Positions 3,573 to 63,767 are shown, counted from the first letter of the stretch. The stretch: DNA of 64,000 bases from TPA_inf: Saccharomyces (GCA_000146045.2 BK006946.2:128001-192000), one strand, 5' to 3'. Numbers and translations are program-made. The notes: a model not told the origin generated them from the sequence alone.

Positions 3573-3824
3573 TTTACTCAATGATTATGTTTATTGTTGA
3601 AATATGTTCCCTCAAATGTCCTAACACTTCTATGATTATTTTTTCTGTGCTTCTCTTTTCAGTATGTTACTACGCTATATTTTTAGACATTGAAGCCATG
3701 ATCGCGAGATCGATCTAATGTACGTATAAAAAGAAAATGGACTTCAAGAGTACAACTAACTAAAGGAAAATCCAACTCTTCCTATAAATTTAGAATTAGC
3801 ATATTCAAAAAAGAAGAAACAAAG

Positions 3825-3896
3825 CACTCACGATGGGGGTCGAACCCATAATCTTCTGATTAGAAGTCAGACGCGTTGCCATTACGCCACGCGAGC
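3825..3896 (-). tRNA. tR(UCU): tRNA-Arg (anticodon UCU), 72 nt
   Basis: Reverse complement reads GCTCGCGTGGCGTAATGGCAACGCGTCTGACTTCTAATCAGAAGATTATGGGTTCGACCCCCATCGTGAGTG. It has a cloverleaf with TCT at the anticodon position and a GGGTTCGACCCCC T-arm. Confidence 0.9.
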
Positions 3897-4029
3897 TAAA
3901 TTTCTTGAATTGTTGGGTAAACAAATATTACTAATACAAATGTTATTAGAAACCAAAAATGCACTTTTCCGGGGTTAATATATATGATTGAGTGATGGAT
4001 GAAGAATGAGATAATTGTTTAAATTCTAT

Positions 4030-4322
4030 AGTTGTCAAGCGCTGTGATACCAGATACACAAAATGTACTAGAGGTTCTCCTCGAGAATATGAAAATCCAC
4101 AATAGAGAACCGATATTTCTGTGTAGGAATATTATTATTTCTTCTTTCATTTTGTATGTTCTCGTTCATTTTCCTAGCACATTATCAACCCTTTCATTTC
4201 AATTTCCATTAAAATTGGTGACTGTTTCTCAATATTTATTTGACCGTCTTATACCCAATATGGTAATATACCAGTAATATAAATACTAGTCGTTAGATGA
4301 TAGTTGCTTCTTATTCCGAAAA
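4030..4322 (-). mobile_element. Diverged solo Ty1/Ty2 delta LTR, reverse orientation, about 135 bp upstream (5') of tR(UCU)
   Basis: Contains delta hallmarks in reverse complement: ...TACTAGAGGTTCTCCTCGAGAATATG... and ...CCAGTAATATAAATACTAGTCGTTAGATGATAGTTGCTTCTTATTCCGAAAA. Boundaries are approximate because the termini are mutated. Confidence 0.55.
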
Positions 4323-25218: not shown

Positions 25219-28200
25219 TCAAATACTATTTCTTCTATGTAATAAAAACTCAGGAACTTGAGAATTCAAAGTGGTTTCTTGTGAACCAGGTATATATGGC
25301 ATCTTGTCGTCGTCAATAAGCCCTTGCAAAAAGATACGACCATAGTCTACACCCACATGATAAATTTCTTCGAACTTGCTAAAGTCTAATGTGGCATATT
25401 CTTCAATAGGTGGTCTCACATAAACGACACCTGGTGTATTTTTCGCTTTCTCTAAAGCATTTACTGATGCGACGTAACCCAATCTAACTTGAATCTCTGC
25501 CATATTGGGTATGTTTGGATGAGAAGAAAATGGATTCCATCTATTGAAAATGATCCAAAACCCATTTAGGGAGTCACCATATTCCATAGGCGTTCTATCA
25601 TCTGCAGAACCTACATCTACTGCAAATATAGTTTGGCAACCACGCGCTCTCATCTCAGTTACTGGTAAATTATCAACATAACCACCATCCAGTAACATAG
25701 ACCCGTTCTCTTCCAAAGGAGGTAAAAGACCAGCAAGAGACATCGAAGCTCTGATGTACCTCCACGCATAACCAAAGGAATGTATTTCTTGAACCGAATC
25801 GGTTATATTAGTAGAATTACAATAATACTGGATCCAGAAGTCTTCAATTCTTGTATCCCCGAAAGTTTTCCAAATACCTCTATTAAATTCGTGACCAGTA
25901 GTATAAGAAGTAACCGGCCAGGTTAAATCTGTTAACATTCTCCATATAGAGGAAATTCGACCAGCAAACTTCTTCACGCGGCCGTAAATTGGCACCAAAT
26001 CATAATCCTTCGCGTACAAACCGCCAACAAAGGAACCAATCGATGTTCCTCCAATAACGTCGACCGGAATACCTTGTTCTTCAATAGCTTGAATGACACC
26101 CAAATGACTAATACCTCTCGCACCTCCTCCTCCGAGGACAAGTCCAATAGCTTGTCCAGAAAGAATTCTAGCCAATCTTAGAAAATCATTTTTATGCCTA
26201 TGAACTGGTGTGTAATATTGTCTTTTACTTTTCATGAATCTTGAAGAAAAGTTTTCTACGGTGTTCTTGATAGAATCTGGAAGTAGTTTTGATATATTCT
26301 GTTGAGTTTTTCTACTGAATTCTGTTTGAATCAACTTATCCATTAATGCCAAGGCACCATTATTCAAAACGTGCATTTTGCCTTCGTTCATCAAGGTTGT
26401 TCCTGTCAAACTAAATTGAATGTGATGATGCGAATGAACCCATGGCCTATAGCGTAACCACTTATGGGTTAGTCCTGGTTCCACATACCTTTCAGGGTGT
26501 AGAAGAATTAACTCGGTCCTTGCGGTAGTCTTTGAATTTAGTAATAACTTTTCATATTCTCCTATTTCGGCTGATGGAGATCTAGCATCTGCTAGTAAGA
26601 GAATACAATCACCTTGCGCAATACAGGTTCTTGTCCAATTAGATTTAACTGGTGTATCTGATATATAAACAACAGTCTGGTACATTTCTTCTAGTTCAGC
26701 AAAGTAACCACTTTGTTTTAATTTGGACAATCTGTCAAATGCATGACGACCTAAATGTGTTAGGGTAGTTCTTTGATTTAAACCAATCGTGGTCCTTCCT
26801 ACCTGTTTGAAAGCTTGCACTAACTTCATAGCAAATGCTTCTACAGGTAGTCCACTGGTAATTGGTAAGATAGTGATGGTTCTAAAAGTAATTGTGCCAG
26901 AAGTAATATTTTGGGGTTTATGACTTAAAGAGCTAGAGTAAGACGCTTTCGTTGGAGGTATTAAAGAAGTGAAGTCGTTTTCCTTTATAGATAATGGATC
27001 GCCTGTTAATGCTGGAACAGTTCTATCTCCGACAATTTTTTTAGCAACTAATCTGGAAACTCTAATCATGATAGATGGATGTTCAAGAGCTAATAGTTCG
27101 AATAATGTTCTCGGAATTCTCGCTAATTCAGAATCCCTCACTGCCACTATCGTTGAATATCTATTCATAGCGGTAAGCACTTCAACTTCACCAAAACTCT
27201 CCCCCTGGGCCAGTTCTCCTAGAATAATGTTCTGAGTTTCAACTTCTTCGGAACTTGTATTGGAGTTTGACAATGACTGCTGTTGTAGCTGCCTTAGTCT
27301 ACCATTCAGGACAACATAAATACCGTTAGCCGAGTCACCTTGTGAAAATAGAGTTTCAGAAGCCCTCAAGTGAACCCATTCTAAAGCATGGTCGAGCTTT
27401 AATAACCTTGAAGATAGCAATTTGGTTAATGAATCAGAAATCCGTAAGTAGATTAGGAAATATTTATCAAACAATCTTTCTAAGGTTGCACTAGATAAAA
27501 ATCCAACATAGACATCGCTCTTGGCAACGATATTAACAAATGATTTGTAACCAATTAGAGAGGACAAGTAGCCCACAATACCACCAGATCCTACAGAGTA
27601 TAACAAATGTTGAGTATGATGAGGATTTTCACCCTTGTGTGAACTTTGGGCTGAAACCTGCTCTGGTTTAGACATTGATGATACTACTGACGAGGACGAA
27701 TTTGTTGTCACATTAACTTTCCCGGAAATGATATAGAATAGGCCTTTACCACGAGCGTTCTGCTCAACAATTGTGGTGCCCTTTTTAAAGAACTTCAACT
27801 GAATGCCTTGTGCAAAGTCTTTCTTGACATCTTCGAAATCCAAATTGGGTGTCAACTCCTCTTTGTAAGCTCTAGGTTTTTTTTTGTCCTGGCTTTTACT
27901 TTTATTATGCCTTTTATTGCTGATAGTGTATTCTTTGGGTAGGATTCTTAACATTGTCGGTTGAGTTTGAGGAGAGGCAAATGATGAAGCTACGGAAATG
28001 TCAGATGGTGTACAGTGAGGGGACATCAGAAAACTTGCGTTACTTGGACGGCGGCTATACATTTCATTAAGTTGAGGAGAGTTTAAAGAAGACATATTTG
28101 CTATCGAAGAAGATGAAACGGACATATTGCTTTTGTTTACACCCAAGTATGTTAACATTGCCTCAACTAAAGCCATTCTTAAAGCAGAGTCCTCGGTTTC

Positions 28201-30258
28201 TTCCTGGGCAGCAGAAAAGGATGTTGTGGGCAGTAAATTAGGTCTTGGAGAGACCCGTCCCTTCAAATGAACGGGACTTGGGTGGATATGGTCATGAACA
28301 GAAGTATTATCCAAGGACAAGGGCGATGTACTAAGTTGTGCGTTGCGCAATTCTGGGGACAAAGAAGAAAACTTCTTAGAGTGTACGGAAGCATTGTTAC
28401 TGCTACTCCTAGAAGATCGCTTATGTTGGTTAGAGGTAGAAGTGTTAATACCGTTTGATTTATTGCGGTTGTTATTATGGATTGGGTTGGGTGACAGAAT
28501 ATCCATAGTTCTAGACAGTGGGACATTTGACAGTAAATCACCAGGATTAAATTGGTCTCTTGAACCCAGTACGACATGTCTCGAACTTGGATGGTGGGTG
28601 AATTCTGGTTTCAGTGAAAGGGAATTCGAACTTGTGTTAGCGTTGGCGTTAGCAATCTTAAGCGATTGAATGATACCATCAGATGGCTTCGCTTTGGGCG
28701 GTTTCTTCAATTTAGAGGAAGCATTACTATTTTTGGGTTTCGGTTCTAAATCAGCCGATCCGCTCGACTTATCTACAGTTTTAAACTTACGAATAACGGC
28801 CTCTTTCAAATAATAAGGCAATTCATAAACGATGGATTTATTTAGTAAAACTTCGATATCCATGATCTCCTTTGTTAAACCTAAGTAGTCGTGAGCAGTT
28901 TGGAACGTAACATGGTATAGCTTGGTGAGAACCATCTGTATGATATGGGAAGCAGACCGTGGGTATTTTGCGGTTAATTTGGCAAACGATTGAGGTGGGA
29001 TAATACCAATTGTGCAGTCTGTAGCCGCACGGGCGACAAGTTTAGGCATTGAAGAGGGGAACGTTGGAAAGCTGTTGGTGGAGTTTGTCATGGAATCTGT
29101 GTTGGAGAAGTTCTGCTCTGATGAGCAGAACATATTGTTGACCGACACCGTTGTGTCTATAGGTGACGATAACTCAGAGGGAAAGTTACTGTTGCCATAC
29201 GAGGACATGGAATGCGTGAATAAGTTTAAAATGCTCACGAGGGAGGTCAGCGGGTTTCCTGGCTTGACTGTATTTAGCAGTTGAAAATTTCCCAGTCCAT
29301 TTTTCAGATGAATGTAACCAACGGATTCATCTTCTTCATCGATGAGGTTAGAAGAACAAGATTTGGTGTCGTAGTTATCAATGTCATCATCTTCTTCTTC
29401 GTCTTCTTCATCTCTATCCTGGTCGTCAAGACCATCCGTGTCACTGTGGTCAGTTTCATCGCCATGGTCCTTATCTGAATGATCTACTTCATGATATAAC
29501 TGCAGGGTGCCTTCAACGACGATGGCAAACCCAATAGTACTGTCCAACAGTAAAATCTCACCCTCATCCATTTTTTGAGTTTTCATATTCTTGGTCAGGT
29601 CATGGAAGACTGGTTTTTCCAGATAGCCAAAGATTTTGATGGCGCTGAGAAATTGGTCAAGGTAAGATGAAAGAAAGGTTTCGTTTTCGTTGCCATCTTT
29701 CAATGAATGCTTTTTTGAGTCTATAATCGAGCTTGCACCCGTGGTAGAGGAACCTATGGCGGGTGGCGCGTTGGCTGACTGAGTGGAAGCTGCATTGATA
29801 TTGGCGCTGGAGCCAGATTTACCTGTATTTTCCAGCGGCAAGAACTCCGGGGTCAGCCTCTTGTACTGGGATAGAATTCTCTCCTTCATGATGGTGTAAG
29901 TCACAAAGACTATGACGGCTAGGGCAAACAGGATCAGCCAAAAGGAAAGAGTGAACTGAACATGGTGTAACTTGAAGAAGATCCACTTCGGAATCCTTAA
30001 AAGCGATAAAGTTGCCAGATACCAACCGTACCTGAAGATCATACGAGAGGCACCCATAACAAAGTAGGACACAACCCACGAGAAGTTGAAGAGGGATGAA
30101 AGTGACCACGTCTGCGCCTCAGAAATAATCTGGTCGGTGAGACATGTCTGGAATCTATAAGAAGTATAATTACTGGAATTAAAGCTGGAGCCAAGACTGT
30201 TTTTCGTGTTTTGGCCGGTATTGTTGGTGTTGTTCGTAGTGCAATTCATTGAACGCAT
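25219..30258 (-). CDS. NTE1: Neuropathy-target-esterase family phosphatidylcholine phospholipase B, 1679 aa. It has an N-terminal TM segment, cNMP-binding-like repeats and a patatin domain (GGGGARG ... GTSIG).
   Basis: ORF track; patatin motifs near the C-terminus. Confidence 0.9.
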   Translation of the reverse strand: MRSMNCTTNNTNNTGQNTKNSLGSSFNSSNYTSYRFQTCLTDQIISEAQTWSLSSLFNFSWVVSYFVMGASRMIFRYGWYLATLSLLRIPKWIFFKLHHVQFTLSFWLILFALAVIVFVTYTIMKERILSQYKRLTPEFLPLENTGKSGSSANINAASTQSANAPPAIGSSTTGASSIIDSKKHSLKDGNENETFLSSYLDQFLSAIKIFGYLEKPVFHDLTKNMKTQKMDEGEILLLDSTIGFAIVVEGTLQLYHEVDHSDKDHGDETDHSDTDGLDDQDRDEEDEEEDDDIDNYDTKSCSSNLIDEEDESVGYIHLKNGLGNFQLLNTVKPGNPLTSLVSILNLFTHSMSSYGNSNFPSELSSPIDTTVSVNNMFCSSEQNFSNTDSMTNSTNSFPTFPSSMPKLVARAATDCTIGIIPPQSFAKLTAKYPRSASHIIQMVLTKLYHVTFQTAHDYLGLTKEIMDIEVLLNKSIVYELPYYLKEAVIRKFKTVDKSSGSADLEPKPKNSNASSKLKKPPKAKPSDGIIQSLKIANANANTSSNSLSLKPEFTHHPSSRHVVLGSRDQFNPGDLLSNVPLSRTMDILSPNPIHNNNRNKSNGINTSTSNQHKRSSRSSSNNASVHSKKFSSLSPELRNAQLSTSPLSLDNTSVHDHIHPSPVHLKGRVSPRPNLLPTTSFSAAQEETEDSALRMALVEAMLTYLGVNKSNMSVSSSSIANMSSLNSPQLNEMYSRRPSNASFLMSPHCTPSDISVASSFASPQTQPTMLRILPKEYTISNKRHNKSKSQDKKKPRAYKEELTPNLDFEDVKKDFAQGIQLKFFKKGTTIVEQNARGKGLFYIISGKVNVTTNSSSSVVSSMSKPEQVSAQSSHKGENPHHTQHLLYSVGSGGIVGYLSSLIGYKSFVNIVAKSDVYVGFLSSATLERLFDKYFLIYLRISDSLTKLLSSRLLKLDHALEWVHLRASETLFSQGDSANGIYVVLNGRLRQLQQQSLSNSNTSSEEVETQNIILGELAQGESFGEVEVLTAMNRYSTIVAVRDSELARIPRTLFELLALEHPSIMIRVSRLVAKKIVGDRTVPALTGDPLSIKENDFTSLIPPTKASYSSSLSHKPQNITSGTITFRTITILPITSGLPVEAFAMKLVQAFKQVGRTTIGLNQRTTLTHLGRHAFDRLSKLKQSGYFAELEEMYQTVVYISDTPVKSNWTRTCIAQGDCILLLADARSPSAEIGEYEKLLLNSKTTARTELILLHPERYVEPGLTHKWLRYRPWVHSHHHIQFSLTGTTLMNEGKMHVLNNGALALMDKLIQTEFSRKTQQNISKLLPDSIKNTVENFSSRFMKSKRQYYTPVHRHKNDFLRLARILSGQAIGLVLGGGGARGISHLGVIQAIEEQGIPVDVIGGTSIGSFVGGLYAKDYDLVPIYGRVKKFAGRISSIWRMLTDLTWPVTSYTTGHEFNRGIWKTFGDTRIEDFWIQYYCNSTNITDSVQEIHSFGYAWRYIRASMSLAGLLPPLEENGSMLLDGGYVDNLPVTEMRARGCQTIFAVDVGSADDRTPMEYGDSLNGFWIIFNRWNPFSSHPNIPNMAEIQVRLGYVASVNALEKAKNTPGVVYVRPPIEEYATLDFSKFEEIYHVGVDYGRIFLQGLIDDDKMPYIPGSQETTLNSQVPEFLLHRRNSI

Positions 30259-30546
30259 GCAAAAACTAGAGCCAAGCCTTTCTATTCTTTTCTTGTTTAT
30301 TTTATATTCGTTAGAGTTTTGTGGTGTTTCTTTAACTTAATAAACTTTCGAGAAAAGTGTCAAGTTTCCCAGATTTTTAAGATCCTTATAACCTGTAAAA
30401 AAAAAAAAAAAAAAAAAAAAGAAGGGTTTAAATAAAAATCGGACTTACTCAAAGGGTTGAAAAGCACTTTAATATAGGTTTTTAGTTTCGGGTAAGAAGA
30501 TGTGTCAAAGGTCTCGAAAAGGAAACATTAGGGCAAATACGTAAAG

Positions 30547-30599
30547 GTTGCCTTCGTATCTCGTTTCCACAGCAACGAGAAACGAGATACGAAGGCAAC
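30547..30599. promoter_or_regulatory. Perfect inverted repeat, 21-bp arms (GTTGCCTTCGTATCTCGTTTC / GAAACGAGATACGAAGGCAAC) with an 11-bp spacer, ending about 12 bp upstream of the HUG1 TATAAAAG at 30613-30620. Arms carry Crt1/Rfx1 X-box half-sites (GTTGCC / GGCAAC).
   Basis: Checked base by base. The arms do not extend further. Location is about 160-210 bp upstream of the HUG1 ATG. Confidence 0.5.
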
Positions 30600-30759
30600 T
30601 GATTCCCAGCATATAAAAGGCCATGAATTTTTGGCGTTTCCTATTGTCTTTTCGAAACTATTTCTTTCATTCCTTTCCTTTCTTGTTCTTTTACTTATAA
30701 GAAAAATAATATACGTATATATATAACTACAAACCACATCAGCAATAAAAAAAAACTAT

Positions 30760-30966
30760 ATGACCATGGACCAAGGCCTTAACCCAAAGCAATTCTTCCT
30801 TGACGATGTCGTCCTACAAGACACTTTGTGCTCAATGAGCAACCGTGTCAACAAGAGTGTCAAGACCGGCTACTTATTCCCCAAGGATCACGTTCCTTCT
30901 GCCAACATCATTGCCGTCGAACGTCGCGGCGGTCTTTCTGACATTGGTAAGAATACTTCCAACTAA
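30760..30966 (+). CDS. HUG1: Small DNA-damage/replication-stress-induced protein, 68 aa
   Basis: ORF track; begins MTMDQGLNPKQFFLDDVVLQDTLCSMSNRVNK. Size and position immediately upstream of SML1. Confidence 0.85.
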   Translation: MTMDQGLNPKQFFLDDVVLQDTLCSMSNRVNKSVKTGYLFPKDHVPSANIIAVERRGGLSDIGKNTSN

Positions 30967-34193: not shown

Positions 34194-36176
34194 TCAATTG
34201 TATAGACGTTTTTCATAGGAGTGCAAATTATGGACACCACCTTCTAATTGAGCAGAAGCGGTTCTGAATTCAAATCTAACTTCACCATTTTGAACATTCT
34301 CTTTCAATGAAGTTAGAGATTCGCAACCAATGTCTTGACAAGAATGTTGTAAACCGTTGTACAAATATGGAATAAACTTCTTGATGGAACCTTTGTCTAC
34401 GACAGCCCCAGAAACACCTTGTGCAACCAAGACACTGTCTGACTCAGAGAAATAACGAGAAGTAGAGGCATTACCCTTGTTACCGGTCTTTTGCATGGCG
34501 TCAATGGACCCCATACCACGATAAGCCTTCAATCTCTTACCATCCTTGTAGAAGTATTCACCTGGTGACTCGGTAGTACCAGCTAACATACCACCCATCA
34601 TGACGGTGGAGGAACCAAGGGCCAAAGCCTTGGTGATGTGGCCAATGTTTTGGACACCACCATCAGCCATACATGGAACGCCAAATTGGTTAGCAAATTG
34701 ACAAACGTTGTAGACAGCTGTACCTTGTGGTCTACCACAAGCCATAACTTCTTGAGTGATACAAATAGACCCAGAACCCATACCAATTCTTAAACCATCG
34801 GCACCGGCAGCAATCAAGTTAGCAGCTTGTTCTCTGGTGGCAACGTTACCAGCAATGATTTCCAAATCTGGGAAAGTTTCTTTAATCCATTTGATCATGT
34901 TCAATTGGAAAACAGAGTTACCTTGAGAGGAATCTAAGATAACAACATCCAAACCTGCTTCGACTAATAGTCTTAATCTTTCCTTATCAGCTTCGATAGT
35001 ACCAATTGCAGCACCACATAGCAATTGCTTGGTGGTGGCGGATTTAGAAGCTAACGGGTAGTTTTGATTCTTCATCAAATCCGCTCTTGACAACATGGAA
35101 ACGAGGTTACCGTTATCATCAACGATAAGCAATTTACCTTTCTTGGTTTGTTTTAGGATTTCATTACCTTCTTTCAAAGTAATACCCTTGATGCCAGTAA
35201 CTGGATTTTTAGTCATGACTTCAGAAACAACCAAAGAATCATCTTCTAAGAATTGTATATCACGAGAGGTGACTAACCCAACTAACTTACCTGGACACTT
35301 ACCGTCTTCTGTGTTCAAAAAGATGTACTTGTTTCCTTTTATTTTCTCAACTTTATGAAGACTGAAGAAATTTTCAGCCCAGCCAGAAAAGAAAAAAAAT
35401 AACAGTATTTACATAGCAATGTTAGTAAAATAAGCCACATATTTTTTTATCACATATATTAAGTTCCTCAAGTGCACTGCACGTCAATTAATCACACATA
35501 ATGGGCTTTCCGAAAAAGGTGCGAATATGATTTAATTCAGAGTAAAAGTTCTCTACAAGATCGTTTGATCACAGTCAGTAGAACGAAAGTTATTGATATA
35601 AAAAGTTGATCATCATCTTAGATCTTTTTCACACCTTGGAAAACTTTATGGATGATTAAAAAGCGCATTCTAATGAAAGAAACATAATACCAAAAATTTT
35701 GTCTATTATAACATACCAGTAACTGGGAAGCCAGAGAAACCAAACTTTCTCTTCATAACCTTAACTTCACCAACAGTGGTGGTTGGAGAAATTACTATTG
35801 GAGAATTGATGAAACCGTTTTCAAACATTTTAACTTTCTTGACCATGGAAGCCTGTTCCTTTGGAGTACAGTTGTGATGGATGAAACCAATACCACCCAA
35901 TAAAGCCATATAAATAGCCATATCAGCTTCAGTGACTGTGTCCATAGGAGAAGAGACAAAAGGAGTGTTCAAAGTGATTTTCTTGGTCAATTTGGTTTGC
36001 AAACTGACAGCAGAAGATGGGAAATTGACCAAGCCTGGTAAGACCAAAAAATCATTGTAGGTCAACCCACCTCTAGTTGTGGAGTCCATCAATTCCTGGA
36101 CAGAAAGACCGTCCTTGGAACTGTATGTCTTCAAATGTTCTAAAGCCTTTTTGTAATCCAATGGAGCAGCACTCAT
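34194..36176 (-). CDS. IMD4: IMP dehydrogenase, spliced. Exon 1 is 35717..36176, the intron is 35309..35716 (408 nt) and exon 2 is 34194..35308. Total 524 aa.
   Basis: Minus-strand ATG at 36176 ([10 protein letters not shown]...), GTATGT at 35716-35711, TACTAAC at 35427-35421, and a 3' CACAG ending at 35309. Exon 2 resumes at AAGACGGTAAGTGTCC (E-D-G-K-C-P) in frame with the 374-aa track ORF. CBS and IMPDH catalytic motifs are present. Confidence 0.9.
35533..35622 (-). ncRNA. SNR54: Box C/D snoRNA inside the IMD4 intron (consistent with snR54)
   Basis: The minus strand reads GATGATGA (box C) near 35617-35610. CTGA motifs (D' and D) lie at 35578-35575 and 35540-35537. The block is about 90 nt, positioned well between the 5' splice site and the branch point. 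Ends are approximate. Confidence 0.55.
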
Positions 36177-40262: not shown

Positions 40263-40375
40263 GTTTCTCAATAGGCGATGGAGGAACAGAGTGAATATAA
40301 GAGGCTCTGTGGATTTATGGTTACCGGATTTATTTCGTAAATTCTTATTGAAGAATGGGTGAATTTTGAGATAAT

Positions 40376-40681
40376 CGTTGGGATTCCATTTTTAATAAGG
40401 CAATAATATTAGGTATGTAGAATGTACTAGAAGTTCTCCTCGAGGATTTAGGAATCCATAAAAGGGAATCTGCAATTCTACACAATTCTATAAATATTAT
40501 TATCATCATTTTATATGTTAATATTCATTGATCCTATTACATTATCAATCCTTGCGTTTCAGCTTCCACTAATTTAGATGACTATTTCTCATCATTTGCG
40601 TCATCTTCTAACACCGTATATGATAATATACTAGTAACGTAAATACTAGTTAGTAGATGATAGTTGATTTTTATTCCAACA
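40376..40681 (-). mobile_element. Solo Ty1 delta LTR, reverse orientation, about 115 bp upstream of tY(GUA)
   Basis: The reverse complement reads TGTTGGAATAAAAATCAACTATCATCTACTAACTAGTATTTACGTTACTAGTATATTATCATATACGGTGTTAGAAGATGACGCAAATGATGAGAAATAGTCATCTAAATTAGTGGAAGCTGAAACGCAAGGATTGATAATGTAATAGG ... CTCGAGGAGAACTTCTAGTACATTCTACATACC ... GGAATCCCAACG. The internal region is diverged. Confidence 0.8.
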
Positions 40682-53473: not shown

Positions 53474-55363
53474 ATGCCAGATGAAACAAATTTTACAATA
53501 GAAGATATTGAGCCTAGGCCTGATGCCCTTCGAGGTTTGGACACCCAGTTCCTTCAAGACAACACAGCATTAGTACAAGCATATCGTGGTTTAGACTGGT
53601 CAGATATTTCTTCGTTGACCCAAATGGTAGATGTTATAGAGCAAACAGTGGTTAAATATGGCAATCCAAATGATTCAATCAAATTGGCCTTGGAAACTAT
53701 TTTATGGCAAATATTGCGTAAGTACCCTTTATTGTTTGGATTTTGGAAGAGGTTTGCTACTATTGAGTACCAGTTATTTGGTCTCAAGAAATCGATTGCT
53801 GTTCTGGCCACCTCGGTCAAATGGTTCCCAACTTCTCTGGAGTTATGGTGTGATTATTTGAATGTGTTGTGTGTTAATAACCCGAACGAAACGGATTTTA
53901 TTAGGAATAATTTTGAAATTGCAAAGGATCTTATTGGCAAGCAGTTTCTATCACACCCTTTTTGGGACAAGTTTATAGAATTTGAAGTTGGGCAGAAGAA
54001 TTGGCATAACGTTCAAAGAATATACGAGTACATTATTGAAGTTCCTCTACATCAGTATGCGCGGTTTTTCACATCTTACAAGAAGTTTTTAAATGAAAAA
54101 AATTTGAAGACAACAAGGAATATTGATATAGTTTTACGAAAAACACAAACAACAGTAAATGAAATTTGGCAGTTCGAATCGAAAATCAAACAGCCCTTCT
54201 TCAACCTGGGCCAAGTGTTAAATGATGATTTGGAAAATTGGTCGCGATATTTAAAATTTGTGACGGATCCTTCAAAATCCTTGGATAAAGAATTCGTAAT
54301 GTCCGTTTTTGACAGATGTTTGATTCCTTGTCTTTACCATGAAAATACGTGGATGATGTATATTAAGTGGCTAACAAAGAAAAATATATCCGATGAAGTG
54401 GTAGTGGATATATACCAAAAAGCCAATACGTTCTTACCACTGGATTTCAAAACTTTGAGGTATGATTTTCTTAGGTTTTTGAAAAGAAAATATCGGTCAA
54501 ATAATACCTTATTCAATAACATATTCAATGAGACAGTATCGCGTTATTTAAAGATTTGGCCCAACGACATATTACTTATGACGGAGTACCTTTGTATGTT
54601 GAAAAGACATTCTTTTAAGAATTCCTTAGATCAATCGCCAAAGGAAATTCTAGAGAAACAAACATCGTTTACTAAAATCCTAGAGACATCAATCACCAAC
54701 TACATCAATAATCAAATTGATGCCAAGGTGCATTTACAGACCTTAATAAATGATAAAAACTTAAGCATAGTCGTGGTAGAATTGATAAAAACTACATGGC
54801 TTGTACTTAAAAATAATATGCAAACAAGGAAATATTTCAACCTTTATCAAAAAAACATCCTCATTAAAAATTCTGTACCGTTCTGGTTAACTTACTACAA
54901 ATTTGAAAAGAGTAATGTAAATTTTACCAAGCTGAATAAATTCATTAGGGAGCTTGGGGTAGAAATATACTTGCCGACTACAGTAATGAATGATATTTTG
55001 ACGGATTATAAGACTTTCTATTTAACTCATTCAAATATCGTCACGTATGAATCCTCCATTATAGATTCAAATACATTTGACCCTATCTTGTACCCTGAGC
55101 TGAAAATGTCGAATCCAAAATACGATCCAGTATTAAATACTACAGCAAATGTAGATTGGCATAAAAAGACGGAATGGAAGGAGGCTGGTCACATCGGCAT
55201 AACGACAGAAAGACCGCAGATATCCAACAGTATAATTGAGTGCAATTCAGGAACTTTGATTCAAAAGCCCATCAGTTTGCCTAATTTTAGAAACTTGGAG
55301 AAAATTAATCAGGTCAAGATTAATGATCTATACACTGAAGAATTTCTTAAGGAAGGTAAATGA
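53474..55363 (+). CDS. PRP39: U1 snRNP protein with HAT/TPR-like repeats, 629 aa
   Basis: ORF track; begins MPDETNFTIEDIEPRPDALRGLDTQFLQDNTALVQAYRGLDWSD. Confidence 0.9.
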   Translation: MPDETNFTIEDIEPRPDALRGLDTQFLQDNTALVQAYRGLDWSDISSLTQMVDVIEQTVVKYGNPNDSIKLALETILWQILRKYPLLFGFWKRFATIEYQLFGLKKSIAVLATSVKWFPTSLELWCDYLNVLCVNNPNETDFIRNNFEIAKDLIGKQFLSHPFWDKFIEFEVGQKNWHNVQRIYEYIIEVPLHQYARFFTSYKKFLNEKNLKTTRNIDIVLRKTQTTVNEIWQFESKIKQPFFNLGQVLNDDLENWSRYLKFVTDPSKSLDKEFVMSVFDRCLIPCLYHENTWMMYIKWLTKKNISDEVVVDIYQKANTFLPLDFKTLRYDFLRFLKRKYRSNNTLFNNIFNETVSRYLKIWPNDILLMTEYLCMLKRHSFKNSLDQSPKEILEKQTSFTKILETSITNYINNQIDAKVHLQTLINDKNLSIVVVELIKTTWLVLKNNMQTRKYFNLYQKNILIKNSVPFWLTYYKFEKSNVNFTKLNKFIRELGVEIYLPTTVMNDILTDYKTFYLTHSNIVTYESSIIDSNTFDPILYPELKMSNPKYDPVLNTTANVDWHKKTEWKEAGHIGITTERPQISNSIIECNSGTLIQKPISLPNFRNLEKINQVKINDLYTEEFLKEGK

Positions 55364-55897: not shown

Positions 55898-55968
55898 TGC
55901 GCAAGCCCGGAATCGAACCGGGGGCCCAACGATGGCAACGTTGGATTTTACCACTAAACCACTTGCGC
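55898..55968 (-). tRNA. tG(GCC): tRNA-Gly (GCC), 71 nt
   Basis: Reverse complement reads GCGCAAGTGGTTTAGTGGTAAAATCCAACGTTGCCATCGTTGGGCCCCCGGTTCGATTCCGGGCTTGCGCA, with anticodon GCC. Confidence 0.92.
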
Positions 55969-56169
55969 GATCTTTATTGGTATTTGTTGGAACATAGAGT
56001 TAACTAACCATATATAACAACTTCTTAAATGCACAGTACAGTCTATTCAAAACTGTAGCTATGCGCTGCATCTTGTGGCAAACTCGAATGGAATTGTGGG
56101 TTTGCTAGGTCTCTGTCCATCTGTAAACAATATTTCCCGGGAACGGGCAACAAAGGTAATGTTTATATG

Positions 56170-56501
56170 TGTTGGAATAAAAATCCACTATCGTCTATCA
56201 ACTAATAGTTATATTATCAATATATTATCATATACGGTGTTAAGATGATGACATAAGTTATGAGAAGCTGTCATCGAGGTTAGAGGAAGCTGAAGTGCAA
56301 GGATTGATAATGTAATAGGATAATGAAACATATAAAACGGAATGAGGAATAATCGTAATATTAGTATGTAGAAATATAGATTCCATTTTGAGGATTCCTA
56401 TATCCTCGAGGAGAACTTCTAGTATATTCTGTATACCTAATATTATAGCCTTTATCAACAATGGAATCCCAACAATTATCTAATTACCCAAATATATCTC
56501 A
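56170..56501 (+). repeat. Ty1 5' LTR (delta), 332 bp. The TYA ATG at 56461 lies inside it.
   Basis: Identical to the 3' copy, followed immediately by the tRNA-iMet primer-binding site. Confidence 0.9.
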
Positions 56502-57783
56502 TGGTAGCGCCTGTGCTTCGGTTACTTCTAAGGAAGTCCACACAAATCAAGATCCGTTAGACGTTTCAGCTTCCAAAATTCAAGAATATGATAAGGCTTC
56601 CACTAAGGCTAACTCTCAACAGACAACAACACCTGCTTCATCAGCTGTTCCAGAGAACCTCCATCATGCCTCTCCTCAACCTGCTTCAGTACCACCTCCA
56701 CAGAATGGGCCGTACCCACAGCAGTGCATGATGACCCAAAACCAAGCCAATCCATCTGGTTGGTCATTTTACGGACACCCATCTATGATTCCGTATACAC
56801 CTTATCAAATGTCGCCTATGTACTTTCCACCTGGGCCACAATCACAGTTTCCGCAGTATCCATCATCAGTTGGAACGCCTCTGAGCACTCCATCACCTGA
56901 GTCAGGTAATACATTTACTGATTCATCCTCAGCGGACTCTGATATGACATCCACTAAAAAATATGTCAGACCACCACCAATGTTAACCTCACCTAATGAC
57001 TTTCCAAATTGGGTTAAAACATACATCAAATTTTTACAAAACTCGAATCTCGGTGGTATTATTCCGACAGTAAACGGAAAACCCGTACGTCAGATCACTG
57101 ATGATGAACTCACCTTCTTGTATAACACTTTTCAAATATTTGCTCCCTCTCAATTCCTACCTACCTGGGTCAAAGACATCCTATCCGTTGATTATACGGA
57201 TATCATGAAAATTCTTTCCAAAAGTATTGAAAAAATGCAATCTGATACCCAAGAGGCAAACGACATTGTGACCCTGGCAAATTTGCAATATAATGGCAGT
57301 ACACCTGCAGATGCATTTGAAACAAAAGTCACAAACATTATCGACAGACTGAACAATAATGGCATTCATATCAATAACAAGGTCGCATGCCAATTAATTA
57401 TGAGAGGTCTATCTGGCGAATATAAATTTTTACGCTACACACGTCATCGACATCTAAATATGACAGTCGCTGAACTGTTCTTAGATATCCATGCTATTTA
57501 TGAAGAACAACAGGGATCGAGAAACAGCAAACCTAATTACAGGAGAAATCCGAGTGATGAGAAGAATGATTCTCGCAGCTATACGAATACAACCAAACCC
57601 AAAGTTATAGCTCGGAATCCTCAAAAAACAAATAATTCGAAATCGAAAACAGCCAGGGCTCACAATGTATCCACATCTAATAACTCTCCCAGCACGGACA
57701 ACGATTCCATCAGTAAATCAACTACTGAACCGATTCAATTGAACAATAAGCACGACCTTCATCTTAGGCCAGAAACTTACTGA
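56461..57783 (+). CDS. TYA1: Ty1 Gag (TYA), 440 aa
   Basis: ORF track; begins [39 protein letters not shown]..., a close variant of canonical Ty1-H3 Gag. Confidence 0.92.
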
Positions 57784-60700
57784 ATCTACAGTAAATCATA
57801 CTAATCATTCTGATGATGAACTCCCTGGACACCTCCTTCTCGATTCAGGAGCATCACGAACCCTTATAAGATCTGCTCATCACATACACTCAGCATCATC
57901 TAATCCTGACATAAACGTAGTTGATGCTCAAAAAAGAAATATACCAATTAACGCTATTGGTGACCTACAATTTCACTTCCAGGACAACACCAAAACATCA
58001 ATAAAGGTATTGCACACTCCTAACATAGCCTATGACTTACTCAGTTTGAATGAATTGGCTGCAGTAGATATCACAGCATGCTTTACCAAAAACGTCTTAG
58101 AACGGTCTGACGGCACTGTACTTGCACCTATCGTAAAATATGGAGACTTTTACTGGGTATCTAAAAAGTACTTGCTTCCATCAAATATCTCCGTACCCAC
58201 CATCAATAATGTCCATACAAGTGAAAGTACACGCAAATATCCTTATCCTTTCATTCATCGAATGCTTGCACATGCCAATGCACAGACAATTCGATACTCA
58301 CTTAAAAATAACACCATCACGTATTTTAACGAATCAGATGTCGACTGGTCTAGTGCTATTGACTATCAATGTCCTGATTGTTTAATCGGCAAAAGCACCA
58401 AACACAGACATATCAAAGGTTCACGACTAAAATACCAAAATTCATACGAACCCTTTCAATACCTACATACTGACATATTTGGTCCAGTTCACAACCTACC
58501 AAAAAGTGCACCATCCTATTTCATCTCATTTACTGATGAGACAACAAAATTCCGTTGGGTTTATCCATTACACGACCGTCGCGAGGACTCTATCCTCGAT
58601 GTTTTTACTACGATACTAGCTTTTATTAAGAACCAGTTTCAGGCCAGTGTCTTGGTTATACAAATGGACCGTGGTTCTGAGTATACTAACAGAACTCTCC
58701 ATAAATTCCTTGAAAAAAATGGTATAACTCCATGCTATACAACCACAGCGGATTCCCGAGCACATGGAGTCGCTGAACGGCTCAACCGTACCTTATTAGA
58801 TGACTGCCGTACTCAACTGCAATGTAGTGGTTTACCGAACCATTTATGGTTCTCTGCAATCGAATTTTCTACTATTGTGAGAAATTCACTAGCTTCACCT
58901 AAAAGCAAAAAATCTGCAAGACAACATGCTGGCTTGGCAGGACTTGATATCAGTACTTTGTTACCTTTCGGTCAACCTGTTATCGTCAATGATCACAACC
59001 CTAACTCCAAAATACATCCTCGTGGCATCCCAGGCTACGCTCTACATCCGTCTCGAAACTCTTATGGATATATCATCTATCTTCCATCCTTAAAGAAGAC
59101 AGTAGATACAACTAACTATGTTATTCTTCAGGGCAAGGAATCCAGATTAGATCAATTCAATTACGACGCACTCACTTTCGATGAAGACTTAAACCGTTTA
59201 ACTGCTTCATATCAATCGTTCATTGCGTCAAATGAGATCCAACAATCCGATGATCTTAACATAGAATCTGACCATGACTTCCAATCTGACATCGAACTAC
59301 ATCCTGAGCAACCGAGAAATGTCCTTTCAAAAGCTGTGAGTCCAACCGATTCCACACCTCCGTCAACTCATACTGAAGATTCGAAACGTGTTTCTAAAAC
59401 CAATATTCGCGCACCCAGAGAAGTTGACCCCAACATATCTGAATCTAATATTCTTCCATCAAAGAAGAGATCTAGCACCCCCCAAATTTCCAATATCGAG
59501 AGTACCGGTTCGGGTGGTATGCATAAATTAAATGTTCCTTTACTTGCTCCCATGTCCCAATCTAACACACATGAGTCGTCGCACGCCAGTAAATCTAAAG
59601 ATTTCAGACACTCAGACTCGTACAGTGAAAATGAGACTAATCATACAAACGTACCAATATCCAGTACGGGTGGTACCAACAACAAAACTGTTCCGCAGAT
59701 AAGTGACCAAGAGACTGAGAAAAGGATTATACACCGTTCACCTTCAATCGATGCTTCTCCACCGGAAAATAATTCATCGCACAATATTGTTCCTATCAAA
59801 ACGCCAACTACTGTTTCTGAACAGAATACCGAGGAATCTATCATCGCTGATCTCCCACTCCCTGATCTACCTCCAGAATCTCCTACCGAATTCCCTGACC
59901 CATTTAAAGAACTCCCACCGATAAATTCTCATCAAACTAATTCCAGTTTGGGTGGTATTGGTGACTCTAATGCCTATACTACTATCAACAGTAAGAAAAG
60001 ATCATTAGAAGATAATGAAACTGAAATTAAGGTATCACGAGACACATGGAATACTAAGAATATGCGTAGTTTAGAACCTCCGAGATCGAAGAAACGAATT
60101 CACCTGATTGCAGCTGTAAAAGCAGTAAAATCAATCAAACCAATACGGACAACCTTAAGATACGATGAGGCAATCACCTATAATAAAGATATTAAAGAAA
60201 AGGAAAAATATATCGAAGCATACCACAAAGAAGTCAACCAACTATTGAAAATGAATACTTGGGACACTGACAAATATTATGACAGAAAAGAAATAGACCC
60301 TAAAAGAGTAATAAATTCAATGTTTATCTTCAACAGGAAACGTGACGGTACTCATAAAGCTAGATTTGTTGCAAGAGGTGATATTCAGCATCCTGACACT
60401 TACGACTCAGGCATGCAATCCAATACCGTACATCACTATGCATTAATGACATCCCTGTCACTTGCATTAGACAATAACTACTATATTACACAATTAGACA
60501 TATCTTCGGCATATTTGTATGCAGACATCAAAGAAGAATTATACATAAGACCTCCACCACATTTAGGAATGAATGATAAGTTGATACGTTTGAAGAAATC
60601 ACTTTATGGATTGAAACAAAGTGGAGCGAACTGGTACGAAACTATCAAATCATACCTGATAAAACAGTGTGGTATGGAAGAAGTTCGTGGATGGTCATGC

Positions 60701-61729
60701 GTATTTAAGAATAGTCAAGTAACAATTTGCTTATTCGTTGATGATATGATATTGTTCAGCAAAGACTTAAATGCAAATAAGAAAATCATAACAACACTCA
60801 AGAAACAATACGATACAAAGATAATAAATCTGGGTGAAAGTGATAACGAAATTCAGTACGACATACTTGGCTTAGAAATCAAATATCAAAGAGGTAAATA
60901 CATGAAATTAGGTATGGAAAACTCATTAACTGAGAAAATACCCAAATTAAACGTACCTTTGAATCCAAAAGGAAGAAAACTTAGCGCTCCAGGTCAACCA
61001 GGTCTTTATATAGACCAGGATGAACTAGAAATAGATGAAGATGAATACAAAGAGAAGGTACATGAAATGCAAAAGTTGATTGGTCTAGCTTCATATGTTG
61101 GATATAAATTTAGATTTGACTTACTATACTACATCAACACACTTGCTCAACATATACTATTCCCCTCTAGGCAAGTTTTAGACATGACATATGAGTTAAT
61201 ACAATTCATGTGGGACACTAGAGATAAACAACTGATATGGCACAAAAACAAACCTACCGAGCCAGATAATAAACTAGTCGCAATAAGTGATGCTTCATAT
61301 GGTAACCAACCATATTACAAGTCACAAATTGGCAACATATATTTACTTAATGGAAAGGTAATTGGAGGAAAGTCCACCAAGGCTTCATTAACATGTACTT
61401 CAACTACGGAAGCAGAAATACACGCGATAAGTGAATCTGTCCCATTATTAAATAACCTCAGTCACCTTGTGCAAGAACTTAACAAGAAACCAATTACTAA
61501 AGGATTACTAACCGACAGTAAATCTACAATCAGTATAATTATATCCAATAATGAAGAGAAATTTAGAAACAGATTTTTTGGTACTAAAGCAATGAGACTA
61601 AGAGATGAAGTATCAGGAAATCATCTGCACGTATGCTATATCGAAACCAAAAAGAATATTGCAGACGTAATGACCAAACCTCTTCCGATAAAAACATTCA
61701 AACTATTAACAAACAAATGGATTCATTAG
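57767..61729 (+). CDS. TYB1: Ty1 Pol (TYB: protease DSGAS, integrase HHCC/DD35E, reverse transcriptase FVDDM, RNase H). Expressed as a Gag-Pol fusion by a +1 frameshift at CTT-AGG-C (57763-57769).
   Basis: The +1 frame is open from GGC at 57767 to the TAG at 61727-61729. The heptamer CTTAGGC is present 14 nt before the TYA stop. The track ORF 58010..61729 is the ATG-delimited part of this frame. Confidence 0.9.
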
Positions 61730-61751
61730 ATCTATTACATTATGGGTGGTA

Positions 61752-62083
61752 TGTTGGAATAAAAATCCACTATCGTCTATCAACTAATAGTTATATTATC
61801 AATATATTATCATATACGGTGTTAAGATGATGACATAAGTTATGAGAAGCTGTCATCGAGGTTAGAGGAAGCTGAAGTGCAAGGATTGATAATGTAATAG
61901 GATAATGAAACATATAAAACGGAATGAGGAATAATCGTAATATTAGTATGTAGAAATATAGATTCCATTTTGAGGATTCCTATATCCTCGAGGAGAACTT
62001 CTAGTATATTCTGTATACCTAATATTATAGCCTTTATCAACAATGGAATCCCAACAATTATCTAATTACCCACATATATCTCA
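61752..62083 (+). repeat. Ty1 3' LTR (delta), 332 bp
   Basis: Identical to the 5' LTR and preceded by the polypurine tract. Confidence 0.9.
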
Positions 62084-62243
62084 ATATGCTATGTTCTTTA
62101 TTATCAATATGCAAAATATTACTCTATGAAGTATAAATATATGTACTGCTTATATACATGCATGCTTTTTAATTACACTTAAAAACAAAAAATGTTTTAA
62201 GTTTCCCTAGTTGAAACCAAGTTATTAAAGTTTACTAGTTTGT

Positions 62244-63767
62244 TCACTCACTTGAGTCTTCATCACTGTAATGCATTTCGTCCAACCCGTTGTCCTCCGG
62301 CGATAAATCCATCAGCTGCGTATCTAGAAATTCTGCATTTGTTTCATACACGTCTCCAAAAGAGTTTTCCACTGAACTGTTATCAATGCTATCATATACG
62401 TTGGCTACATCCCTCTCTTGAATGTCTTGTGCTTCGCCGTACAGTCTTGACTCGAAGCTTTTCAGTTGATTTTCAATTAACCTGCTAGGGACGGCAAACC
62501 CACCTTTATCTAAGCAAATTTTTAAAAACGTTCTCACGTAGTGAATATGTTTTATAACCTGGTTGATCTTTATGTCTCTATCCAAACCAATTAGGTCATT
62601 ATTTTTGTTGTCATTGACAAATTGCCTCGACAATGTATCGGCCTTCAATAAATGACAAGATGCATAAATGAACCAAACTTCAGCGTCTTCCATAAACGGA
62701 GGGGTCAATACCCATTCTGATATCTTATCAATCAATTCTTGTAGTAAATCGTTTTCCGTATCAAAAGGTTTGTCAATGATGTTTGATGATGGTTCCATAG
62801 ATTTTTGGCAATTAATTAAAGAAGACCAAAGGTACGTGATAGCAAATTTCGCAGTATGTGTTCTAGAACCGGTTTGAAAAGGAGGGACAATGGAACGGTA
62901 ATTGATGTTCTGAACAAATCTTGACTTTGACGAATAGATTTGACACATCCATTGTAAGAAGTCAAGACCACTTGATGAATTTGATAAATTATCCAGTATT
63001 TCAACGCCAATGCCCCAAAGAGACTTGATTTGAACCCCTGGGATCCTTATTAATGTGGCGAATATTTTATATGCAAGCGACCAGTTATGTCTTGACACAT
63101 TCAAATGCAAAAGGTCGGTTAATGTTACTATATGTCTTGTGCGGTAGTTTCTGACTTCTGATGTTGATGTTTTTAATGGCTCTAACCCTCTAGATATAGA
63201 TTGGAAGTAAAGTTTATTTTCCTTTGTACAATGCAAAAGTGGAATTTCCATTTTCCTTAAAGGAATCTTTTCAATTTTTTTAAAATTATGATACGTCATT
63301 TTTTGTTTGTTAATGGGCTGTTTATTTTGTGAGGACACTGTTCGCCAAATTTCGAAACTCTTCTCAGGTTTTTCGTATTTTTTCCAAAATTTTCTCTCCT
63401 CATCACTATCTTCCTTGTCTATCCCGGTGTCATGTTCGCCACCTTCCTCAGTTTCCTCCTCTTGAGAGTCTGTTTCGCTTTCCGTAGTAGAGTAAATTTC
63501 ACCGACCACACTCCTCCAATGCCTTTCTCTTCTTCTTTTCTTCTGCTGTAGTACTGACCTCCTATATGTGCCGGCTTCACTGTTTTGACCTTCTTCTTCG
63601 TCATTATTTTCAGCTGCAGAATTTTCGGGCGTTGGCAAACTATCTGTGGTAGTAGATTTCTTGGAAATTCTGTCAAATCTTCTAGAAATGTAATTTATGT
63701 ATTGATACTTTAACTTTCTTCTTTGAGCAAACTTCCTATTAGTTAAAGTTATAGGGACTTCAAACAT
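62244..63767 (-). CDS. RRN11: RNA polymerase I core factor subunit, 507 aa
   Basis: ORF track; begins MFEVPITLTNRKFAQRRKLKYQYINYISRRFDR; acidic/Ser-rich N-terminal region; synteny after the Ty1/tG(GCC) locus. Confidence 0.82.
   Translation of the reverse strand: MFEVPITLTNRKFAQRRKLKYQYINYISRRFDRISKKSTTTDSLPTPENSAAENNDEEEGQNSEAGTYRRSVLQQKKRRRERHWRSVVGEIYSTTESETDSQEEETEEGGEHDTGIDKEDSDEERKFWKKYEKPEKSFEIWRTVSSQNKQPINKQKMTYHNFKKIEKIPLRKMEIPLLHCTKENKLYFQSISRGLEPLKTSTSEVRNYRTRHIVTLTDLLHLNVSRHNWSLAYKIFATLIRIPGVQIKSLWGIGVEILDNLSNSSSGLDFLQWMCQIYSSKSRFVQNINYRSIVPPFQTGSRTHTAKFAITYLWSSLINCQKSMEPSSNIIDKPFDTENDLLQELIDKISEWVLTPPFMEDAEVWFIYASCHLLKADTLSRQFVNDNKNNDLIGLDRDIKINQVIKHIHYVRTFLKICLDKGGFAVPSRLIENQLKSFESRLYGEAQDIQERDVANVYDSIDNSSVENSFGDVYETNAEFLDTQLMDLSPEDNGLDEMHYSDEDSSE

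Follow-up and report, generated by a model that had tools for sequence, protein, structure and literature searches.

The integration of Ty1 and Ty2 upstream of genes transcribed by RNA polymerase III (Pol III) is an established and expected pattern in Saccharomyces cerevisiae. Within Ty1, a canonical Ty1 and a Ty1' subfamily were distinguished, and segments of pol derived from Ty1' were described (Czaja et al., 2020; PMC7055915). The Ty1 copy YMLWTy1-1 (Ty1-ML1) on chromosome XIII of strain S288C has been in experimental use in the form of Ty1(ML1)-lacZ reporters, and gross chromosomal rearrangements were found with a breakpoint in this copy, which recombines with Ty912 and with the neighbouring YMLWTy1-2 resulting in translocations, deletions and duplications (PMC3102749; PMC7668089). 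The pair of YMLWTy1-1 and YMLWTy1-2 was described in published work as a deletion/duplication hotspot, at which RRN11, CAT2 and VPS71 are removed. Here, we analyzed a stretch of 64,000 nucleotides of S288C chromosome XIII (GCA_000146045.2, BK006946.2:128001-192000; in the following the window), in which positions 56170-62083 hold a Ty1 element of 5,914 bp. We are highly confident that this element is the annotated YMLWTy1-1 (YML045W-A and YML045W), a full-length canonical Ty1 (Ty1/copia, Pseudoviridae).

The identity of the element is settled because exact-sequence look-ups match both of its proteins. The Gag translation is identical to NP_058176.1/Q04706, the 'Transposon Ty1-ML1 Gag polyprotein', and the frameshift fusion is identical to NP_013668.1/Q04711, 'Ty1-ML1 Gag-Pol', both of S. 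cerevisiae S288C and encoded on a contig of 924,431 bp (chromosome XIII). The element is already known and contained in the reference annotation, which had escaped the sequence-only reading, an earlier description of this DNA made from the nucleotides without database searches. It is located on chromosome XIII between PRP39 (53474-55363) and RRN11 (62244-63767, minus strand), which were both found as exact open reading frame (ORF) matches, and the further neighbouring ORFs PRM6, GSF2, RSE1 and AIM32 match exactly as well. On its left side it faces a tRNA-Gly(GCC) gene (55898-55968, minus strand), that was detected by ARAGORN and by Rfam (RF00005, 60.3 bits). The 5' end of this tRNA gene and the element are separated by 201 bp, which is inside the range of approximately 750 bp upstream of Pol III genes. 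Transcription of the tRNA gene and of the element is divergent. The tRNA-Gly(GCC) gene is the Pol III gene that targeted the insertion and the element occupies the usual Ty1 position. The earlier description of an intact Ty1 upstream of a Pol III gene holds, as the coding and the cis-acting parts are complete at this distance from tRNA-Gly(GCC).

A repeat search of the window returned one direct-repeat family with a start-to-start spacing of 5,582 bp, corresponding to the two LTRs (long terminal repeats) of the element; all element features given in the following are on the plus strand. The 5' LTR (delta; 56170-56501) and the 3' LTR (61752-62083) both have 332 bp and start with TG and end with CA. 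A chance origin of a 332-bp repeat with 99.7% identity is impossible. The sequence-only reading had reported two LTRs of 332 bp with 100% identity, of which the length stands while the identity does not: exact pairwise comparison gives 331/332 identical positions, with the sole mismatch at LTR position 322, which is A in the 5' LTR (56491) and C in the 3' LTR (62073). The variant base is already contained in the translation NYPNISHG given in that reading, for which the copy in the 3' LTR would read H. As the 3' LTR keeps the C, encoding His as in most other copies, the 5' LTR is most likely the one that was changed, and the C to A exchange most likely arose after integration or as an error in plus-strand strong-stop synthesis. 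With a single difference instead of several, the LTRs are compatible with a young insertion, and the proposal of a recent insertion still fits, all the more as empty sites exist elsewhere (see below). Directly outside of the LTRs, the pentamer ATATG is found on both sides of the element (56165-56169 and 62084-62088, without strand), as expected for a perfect target-site duplication.

The cis-acting signals are complete. In the U3 region of the 5' LTR the motif TATAAAA is found at 56331-56337, which we take to be the TATA box on the basis of established knowledge of Ty1. The sequence CTCGAGGAGAACTTC at 56405-56419 contains an XhoI site and the start-of-R region, and presumably marks the start of the Ty1 mRNA, as it is known for Ty1-H3. 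The primer-binding site TGGTAGCGCC (56502-56511) abuts the 5' LTR and the polypurine tract GGGTGGTA (61744-61751) abuts the 3' LTR, so that both signals named in the sequence-only reading are present. The complementarity of TGGTAGCGCC to the 3' end of the initiator tRNA-Met (tRNA-iMet) is assumed from established knowledge; the window has no tRNA-iMet gene. A further GGGTGGTA within the element at 59950-59957 may serve as the central polypurine tract (PPT2); the same octamer is found at 59512 and 59668 as well.

The coding part is uninterrupted, as had been claimed. The TYA/Gag ORF (YML045W-A; 56461-57783) starts with an ATG within the 5' LTR and encodes 440 amino acids, of which residues 17-400 match Pfam TYA with E = 2.7e-233. 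In the Pol frame, no stop occurs between 57743 and 61729. The heptamer CTTAGGC, the putative site of +1 ribosomal frameshifting, occurs a single time, in the overlap of Gag and Pol (57763-57769), and if the A at 57766 is skipped, a Gag-Pol of 1,755 amino acids without internal stop results; the +1 fusion predicted in this way at CUU-AGG-C reproduces NP_013668.1 exactly. The TYB/Pol part (YML045W; 57767-61729) contains protease, integrase, reverse transcriptase and RNase H in this order, and the Pfam matches TYA, Pol_BBD, rve, SH3_retrovirus (retroviral SH3-like) and RVT_2 follow each other in copia order. The protease domain (57836-58060; Pol_BBD, PF22936, residues 459-533) carries DSGAS with D461. 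The integrase core (58448-58750; rve, residues 663-763) has the catalytic residues D671, D736 and E772, it is preceded by the zinc motif HRMLAH...CPDC, and the C-terminal KKR…KKR motif of the integrase is present. The reverse transcriptase (60302-60922; RVT_2, residues 1281-1487) contains FVDDM with D1427 and D1428. The catalytic motifs named in the sequence-only reading are thereby all found at their places. The Pfam scan of Gag-Pol gave no match for RNase H, which was assigned by motif to D1610, E1652 and D1685 (residues 1610-1685; 61289-61516). The processing-site motifs RAHNVS, TINNVH and LIAAVK are present in Gag-Pol. Furthermore, Gag contains the codons for M249 and M259 (57205-57237), which in canonical Ty1 are the starts of the copy-number-control restriction factor p22 (PMC4551931; PMC7055915) and which may serve as p22 starts in this copy as well.

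The Gag protein was compared in an alignment of ten Gag proteins, and the Gag-Pol protein was compared with five other S288C Gag-Pol proteins, to which it is 98-99% identical. N11, the only private residue of this copy among these six Gag-Pol proteins, is explained by the LTR mismatch: it is encoded by the base at which the LTRs differ, and the version of the 3' LTR would read H. In the ten aligned Gags, position 11 is H, Q or P in the others, and L67 stands against P in the other nine; Q211 is common to several of them. As a separate observation, Ty1 Gag and Gag-Pol fragments are deposited under the bacterial names Streptococcus uberis, Flavonifractor plautii and Eggerthella sinensis, which is almost certainly due to contamination of these assemblies by yeast DNA.

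The element is polymorphic among strains, a check that had been suggested for this copy. The corresponding chromosome XIII loci of other strains were fetched with the RRN11 protein of the window, yielding 11 other genomes, all with the S288C allele of RRN11. In 8 of the 11 (L004-L011) the site is empty and holds one pentamer, which is ATATG in seven of them and ATACG in L008. The uninterrupted site reads …GTAATGTTT-ATATG-CTATGTTC…, with the junction sequence …GTAATGTTTATATGCTATGTTC…. Because these empty sites have one pentamer and the 332-bp delta LTRs of YMLWTy1-1 are flanked by ATATG on either side, ATATG is a true target-site duplication, as had been proposed, and the element is an insertion polymorphism; a chance duplication of five base pairs is ruled out by the same sites. 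The insertion is recent enough for an empty site in other strains and for an LTR divergence of one base.

The same interval was used repeatedly. In L002 (GCA_030036015.1) an element of 5,960 bp resides at exactly the same ATATG in opposite orientation, between anchors matching window positions 56121-56164 and 62089-62130. It has LTRs of 332 bp with one mismatch, and its Gag begins with MESQQLHQNPHSLH and is 50% identical to the Gag of YMLWTy1-1. By sequence, this is a full-length Ty2 that inserted independently into the same five base pairs. L010 (GCA_000978315.2) carries a solo delta between the tRNA-Gly gene and its empty ATATG, approximately 50 bp nearer to the tRNA gene than window position 56165, and this delta is 99.4% identical to positions 1-312 of the YMLWTy1-1 LTR. 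The extra 335 bp of L010 were considered as a solo-LTR remnant of YMLWTy1-1 itself, which is ruled out by the position closer to the tRNA gene and by the empty ATATG; the solo delta was left by yet another insertion event in the interval. Because of the Ty2 in L002 and the solo delta in L010, the interval upstream of tRNA-Gly is a recurrent target.

Other traces of Ty elements and other non-coding features were found elsewhere in the window. A delta-like solo LTR remnant is located at 40369-40681 (minus strand), it shares 81% of 318 aligned positions with the YMLWTy1-1 LTR and no tRNA gene was called adjoining it. An older delta-like remnant with 73% identity is located at 4005-4317 (minus strand), approximately 110 bp upstream of the second tRNA gene of the window, a tRNA-Arg(TCT) at 3824-3896 (minus strand), and constitutes another Pol III-associated landing site of Ty elements. 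The C/D-box snoRNA snR54 (35535-35620, minus strand; Rfam, 103 bits) is unrelated to the element. The Rfam scan of the window gave no match within the element, its matches being limited to the two tRNAs and snR54.

The present analysis demonstrates what the element is, that it is intact and that its insertion is polymorphic among strains. As to its function, we infer from the sequence that YMLWTy1-1 is most likely retrotransposition-competent, because nothing that the Ty1 cycle requires in cis or in trans is missing from it. The element was inserted by integrase at a distance of 196-201 bp upstream of tRNA-Gly(GCC), whereby ATATG was duplicated. Transferred from established Ty1 biology, the further course of events for this copy would be as follows. 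Transcription from the promoter in the 5' LTR would run through to the 3' LTR. The transcript would be translated into Gag and, by +1 frameshifting at the AGG pause, into about 3% Gag-Pol. Virus-like particles would assemble and be processed by the protease, and reverse transcription would be primed by tRNA-iMet, for which the element supplies the primer-binding site and the polypurine tract. Targeting by the interaction of integrase with AC40 would then direct the insertion of new copies to the upstream regions of Pol III genes. The mobility would probably be low, due to weak transcription of this copy and to copy-number control by p22 made from internal AUGs.

Several points weigh against the reading of YMLWTy1-1 as an ordinary, competent single-copy Ty1. 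N11, which differs from all other S288C Gags and Gag-Pols compared, and L67, which differs from the nine aligned Gags, depart from the canonical S288C Gags. No direct measurement of retromobility of this copy was found in the literature search. The locus may, moreover, truly be a tandem dimer in S288C-lineage strains, in which case the single copy of the window is perhaps an incomplete picture of the native structure. As to its expression, the promoter of Ty1-ML1 itself was shown to drive a Ty1(ML1)-lacZ (TYA-lacZ) fusion (Servant et al., 2012; PMC3384299). Adenine starvation of bas1Δ cells raised the expression of the fusion 6.7-fold, for which Tye7 was required, and Ty1 elements with weak expression were reported to be the ones preferentially activated in cells deprived of adenine, with ML1 being the most induced of the three fusions (PMC3384299). 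This strong induction suggests that the basal promoter of ML1 is weak.

An element that is structurally intact yet functionally dead, be it by a missense change or by a silenced locus, would agree with the two residues that are unlike those of other canonical Gags. Such an element would nevertheless have to be reconciled with Gag and Pol lacking any stop or frameshift, with the presence of all catalytic residues and of RAHNVS, TINNVH and LIAAVK, and with the close agreement with the five other S288C Gag-Pols. In addition, Curcio and Garfinkel (1994) reportedly found the majority of genomic Ty1 elements to be functional. The apparently weak expression of this copy in rich conditions could be taken as a sign of silencing, but the promoter is inducible (PMC3384299). 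We therefore consider a dead element improbable and retain competence as the preferred reading.

For the copy number at the locus the evidence is more evenly divided. Only one other contig in the collection encodes exactly the same Gag-Pol, namely chromosome XIII of GCA_010356925.1, on which the gene call has a length of 10,851 bp. At this locus (L001, 9710-21205) the structure is LTR-internal-LTR-internal-LTR in head-to-tail arrangement, the two units of 5,582 bp are identical to each other, and the three LTRs have A, A and C at position 322. On both sides, the flanking DNA agrees with that of the window at 100% identity, for 9,709 bp to the left and 1,917 bp to the right. GCA_010356925.1 is a genome of S288C background with a perfect dimer, which matches the published YMLWTy1-1A/B. 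Thus, the single copy of the window could be a collapsed or recombined form of a head-to-tail dimer, which would be the true state in S288C-lineage strains. Unequal exchange of a 3' LTR with a 5' LTR would usually leave A in the central LTR, since no more than 11 bp lie between the variant base and the LTR end. In S288C-derived strains, Southern blots of BamHI digests and cloning of the junctions revealed approximately one extra Ty at the locus (Chan and Kolodner, 2011; PMC3102749). No other report of a tandem Ty1 on chromosome XIII was found in the literature search. However, a BsaHI digest in the study of Chan and Kolodner showed 'no extra DNA' (PMC3102749), the element in the window is by itself a coherent single copy whose target-site duplication is normal, and single copy and dimer readily interconvert by recombination of LTRs or units, so that both states may exist across sublines. 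We regard a native dimer in S288C-lineage strains as a serious possibility that falls a little short of an even chance.

On balance, it appears somewhat more likely than not that the S288C reference under-represents the locus, with a dimer being possible, and that, taken together with the Ty2 at the same target, the interval upstream of tRNA-Gly is a nucleotide-precise, recurrent hotspot of integration and rearrangement. As a discovery the element has little weight, as it is real but ordinary and annotated. What is added here is context, namely the strains with an empty site, the strain in which a Ty2 uses this target, and the tandem dimer, the latter being of importance for read mapping or engineering at this locus if S288C-derived strains carry it. 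That an intact LTR retrotransposon was correctly recognised from the nucleotides alone, without tools, makes it a useful positive control.

The variant residues of Gag and U3 had been taken in the sequence-only reading as a sign of a Ty1 subfamily, which was not borne out. In the alignment of the ten Gags, SNYP.ISHG and KIQEYDK are also present in Ty1-OR, Ty1-DR3, Ty1-BR and others. The Gag of YMLWTy1-1 reaches 99.3% identity with Ty1-OR, 97.5% with the SQHSPISHG/KTEECEK (DR6-type) Gag, which is found in five S288C elements, Ty1-DR6 among them, 85% with the recombinant Ty1-NL1 and 77-78% with the Ty1' elements Ty1-BL and Ty1-DR2. At 90% identity it clusters with the Ty1-OR/-DR3/-BR type as well as with the SQHSPISHG/KTEECEK type, and the Ty1' Gags are in a separate cluster. 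Judged by Gag, the element is a canonical Ty1 and not a distinct subfamily. That it belongs to such a subfamily, either Ty1' or a Ty1/Ty2 hybrid, could be suspected from Gag residues 8-11 and 40-44, which are unlike the SQHSPISHG/KTEECEK type, and from the first approximately 150 nucleotides of U3, which are unlike the LTR of the neighbouring YMLWTy1-2, the LTRs being approximately 90% identical overall. Yet the N-terminal haplotype is the same in Ty1-OR, Ty1-DR3 and Ty1-BR, both Ty1' and Ty2 Gags are too distant, the latter, of the MESQQLHQNPHSLH type, with 50% identity and a Ty2 length of 5,960 bp versus 5,914 bp, and the likeness to the Ty2 LTR in distal U3 belongs to YMLWTy1-2 and not to YMLWTy1-1. 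A subfamily of this kind is very unlikely, and the Gag identities together with the LTR alignment rule it out. The U3 difference is ordinary heterogeneity among deltas, as beyond the first approximately 150 nucleotides the LTR is the same as that of YMLWTy1-2. The start of YMLWTy1-2 was found at 27454-30851 of the GCA_010356925.1 locus, approximately 6.2 kb beyond YMLWTy1-1 and outside of the window; internally, the two elements are 98.5% identical, whereas the LTRs reach only the value given above, with a Ty2-like distal U3 in YMLWTy1-2.

Compared with the described systems, the canonical YMLWTy1-1 has no difference to its own reference record, as Gag, Gag-Pol, the flanks PRP39 and RRN11 and the position of tRNA-Gly(GCC) are all identical. 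The other canonical S288C elements Ty1-OR, Ty1-DR3, Ty1-BR, Ty1-GR2, Ty1-ER1 and Ty1-JR1/2 have the same architecture, with Gag being approximately 99% and Gag-Pol 98-99% identical; N11 and L67 and 22-43 substitutions over Gag-Pol distinguish YMLWTy1-1 from these. The DR6-type Gag differs at eleven residues, namely 8-11, 40, 41, 43, 44, 67, 364 and 438. We take this SQHSPISHG/KTEECEK Gag to be the Gag of Ty1-H3, although its name in the database is Ty1-DR6 and not H3. Ty1', represented by Ty1-BL and Ty1-DR2, belongs to the same family and has the same domain order, with a Gag that shares 77-78% of its residues with that of YMLWTy1-1. Ty2 has in common with YMLWTy1-1 the delta-type LTRs of 332 bp, the primer-binding site, the frameshift heptamer and the target preference, but differs in its length of 5,960 bp, in a Gag with 50% identity and in a divergent proximal U3 and U5.

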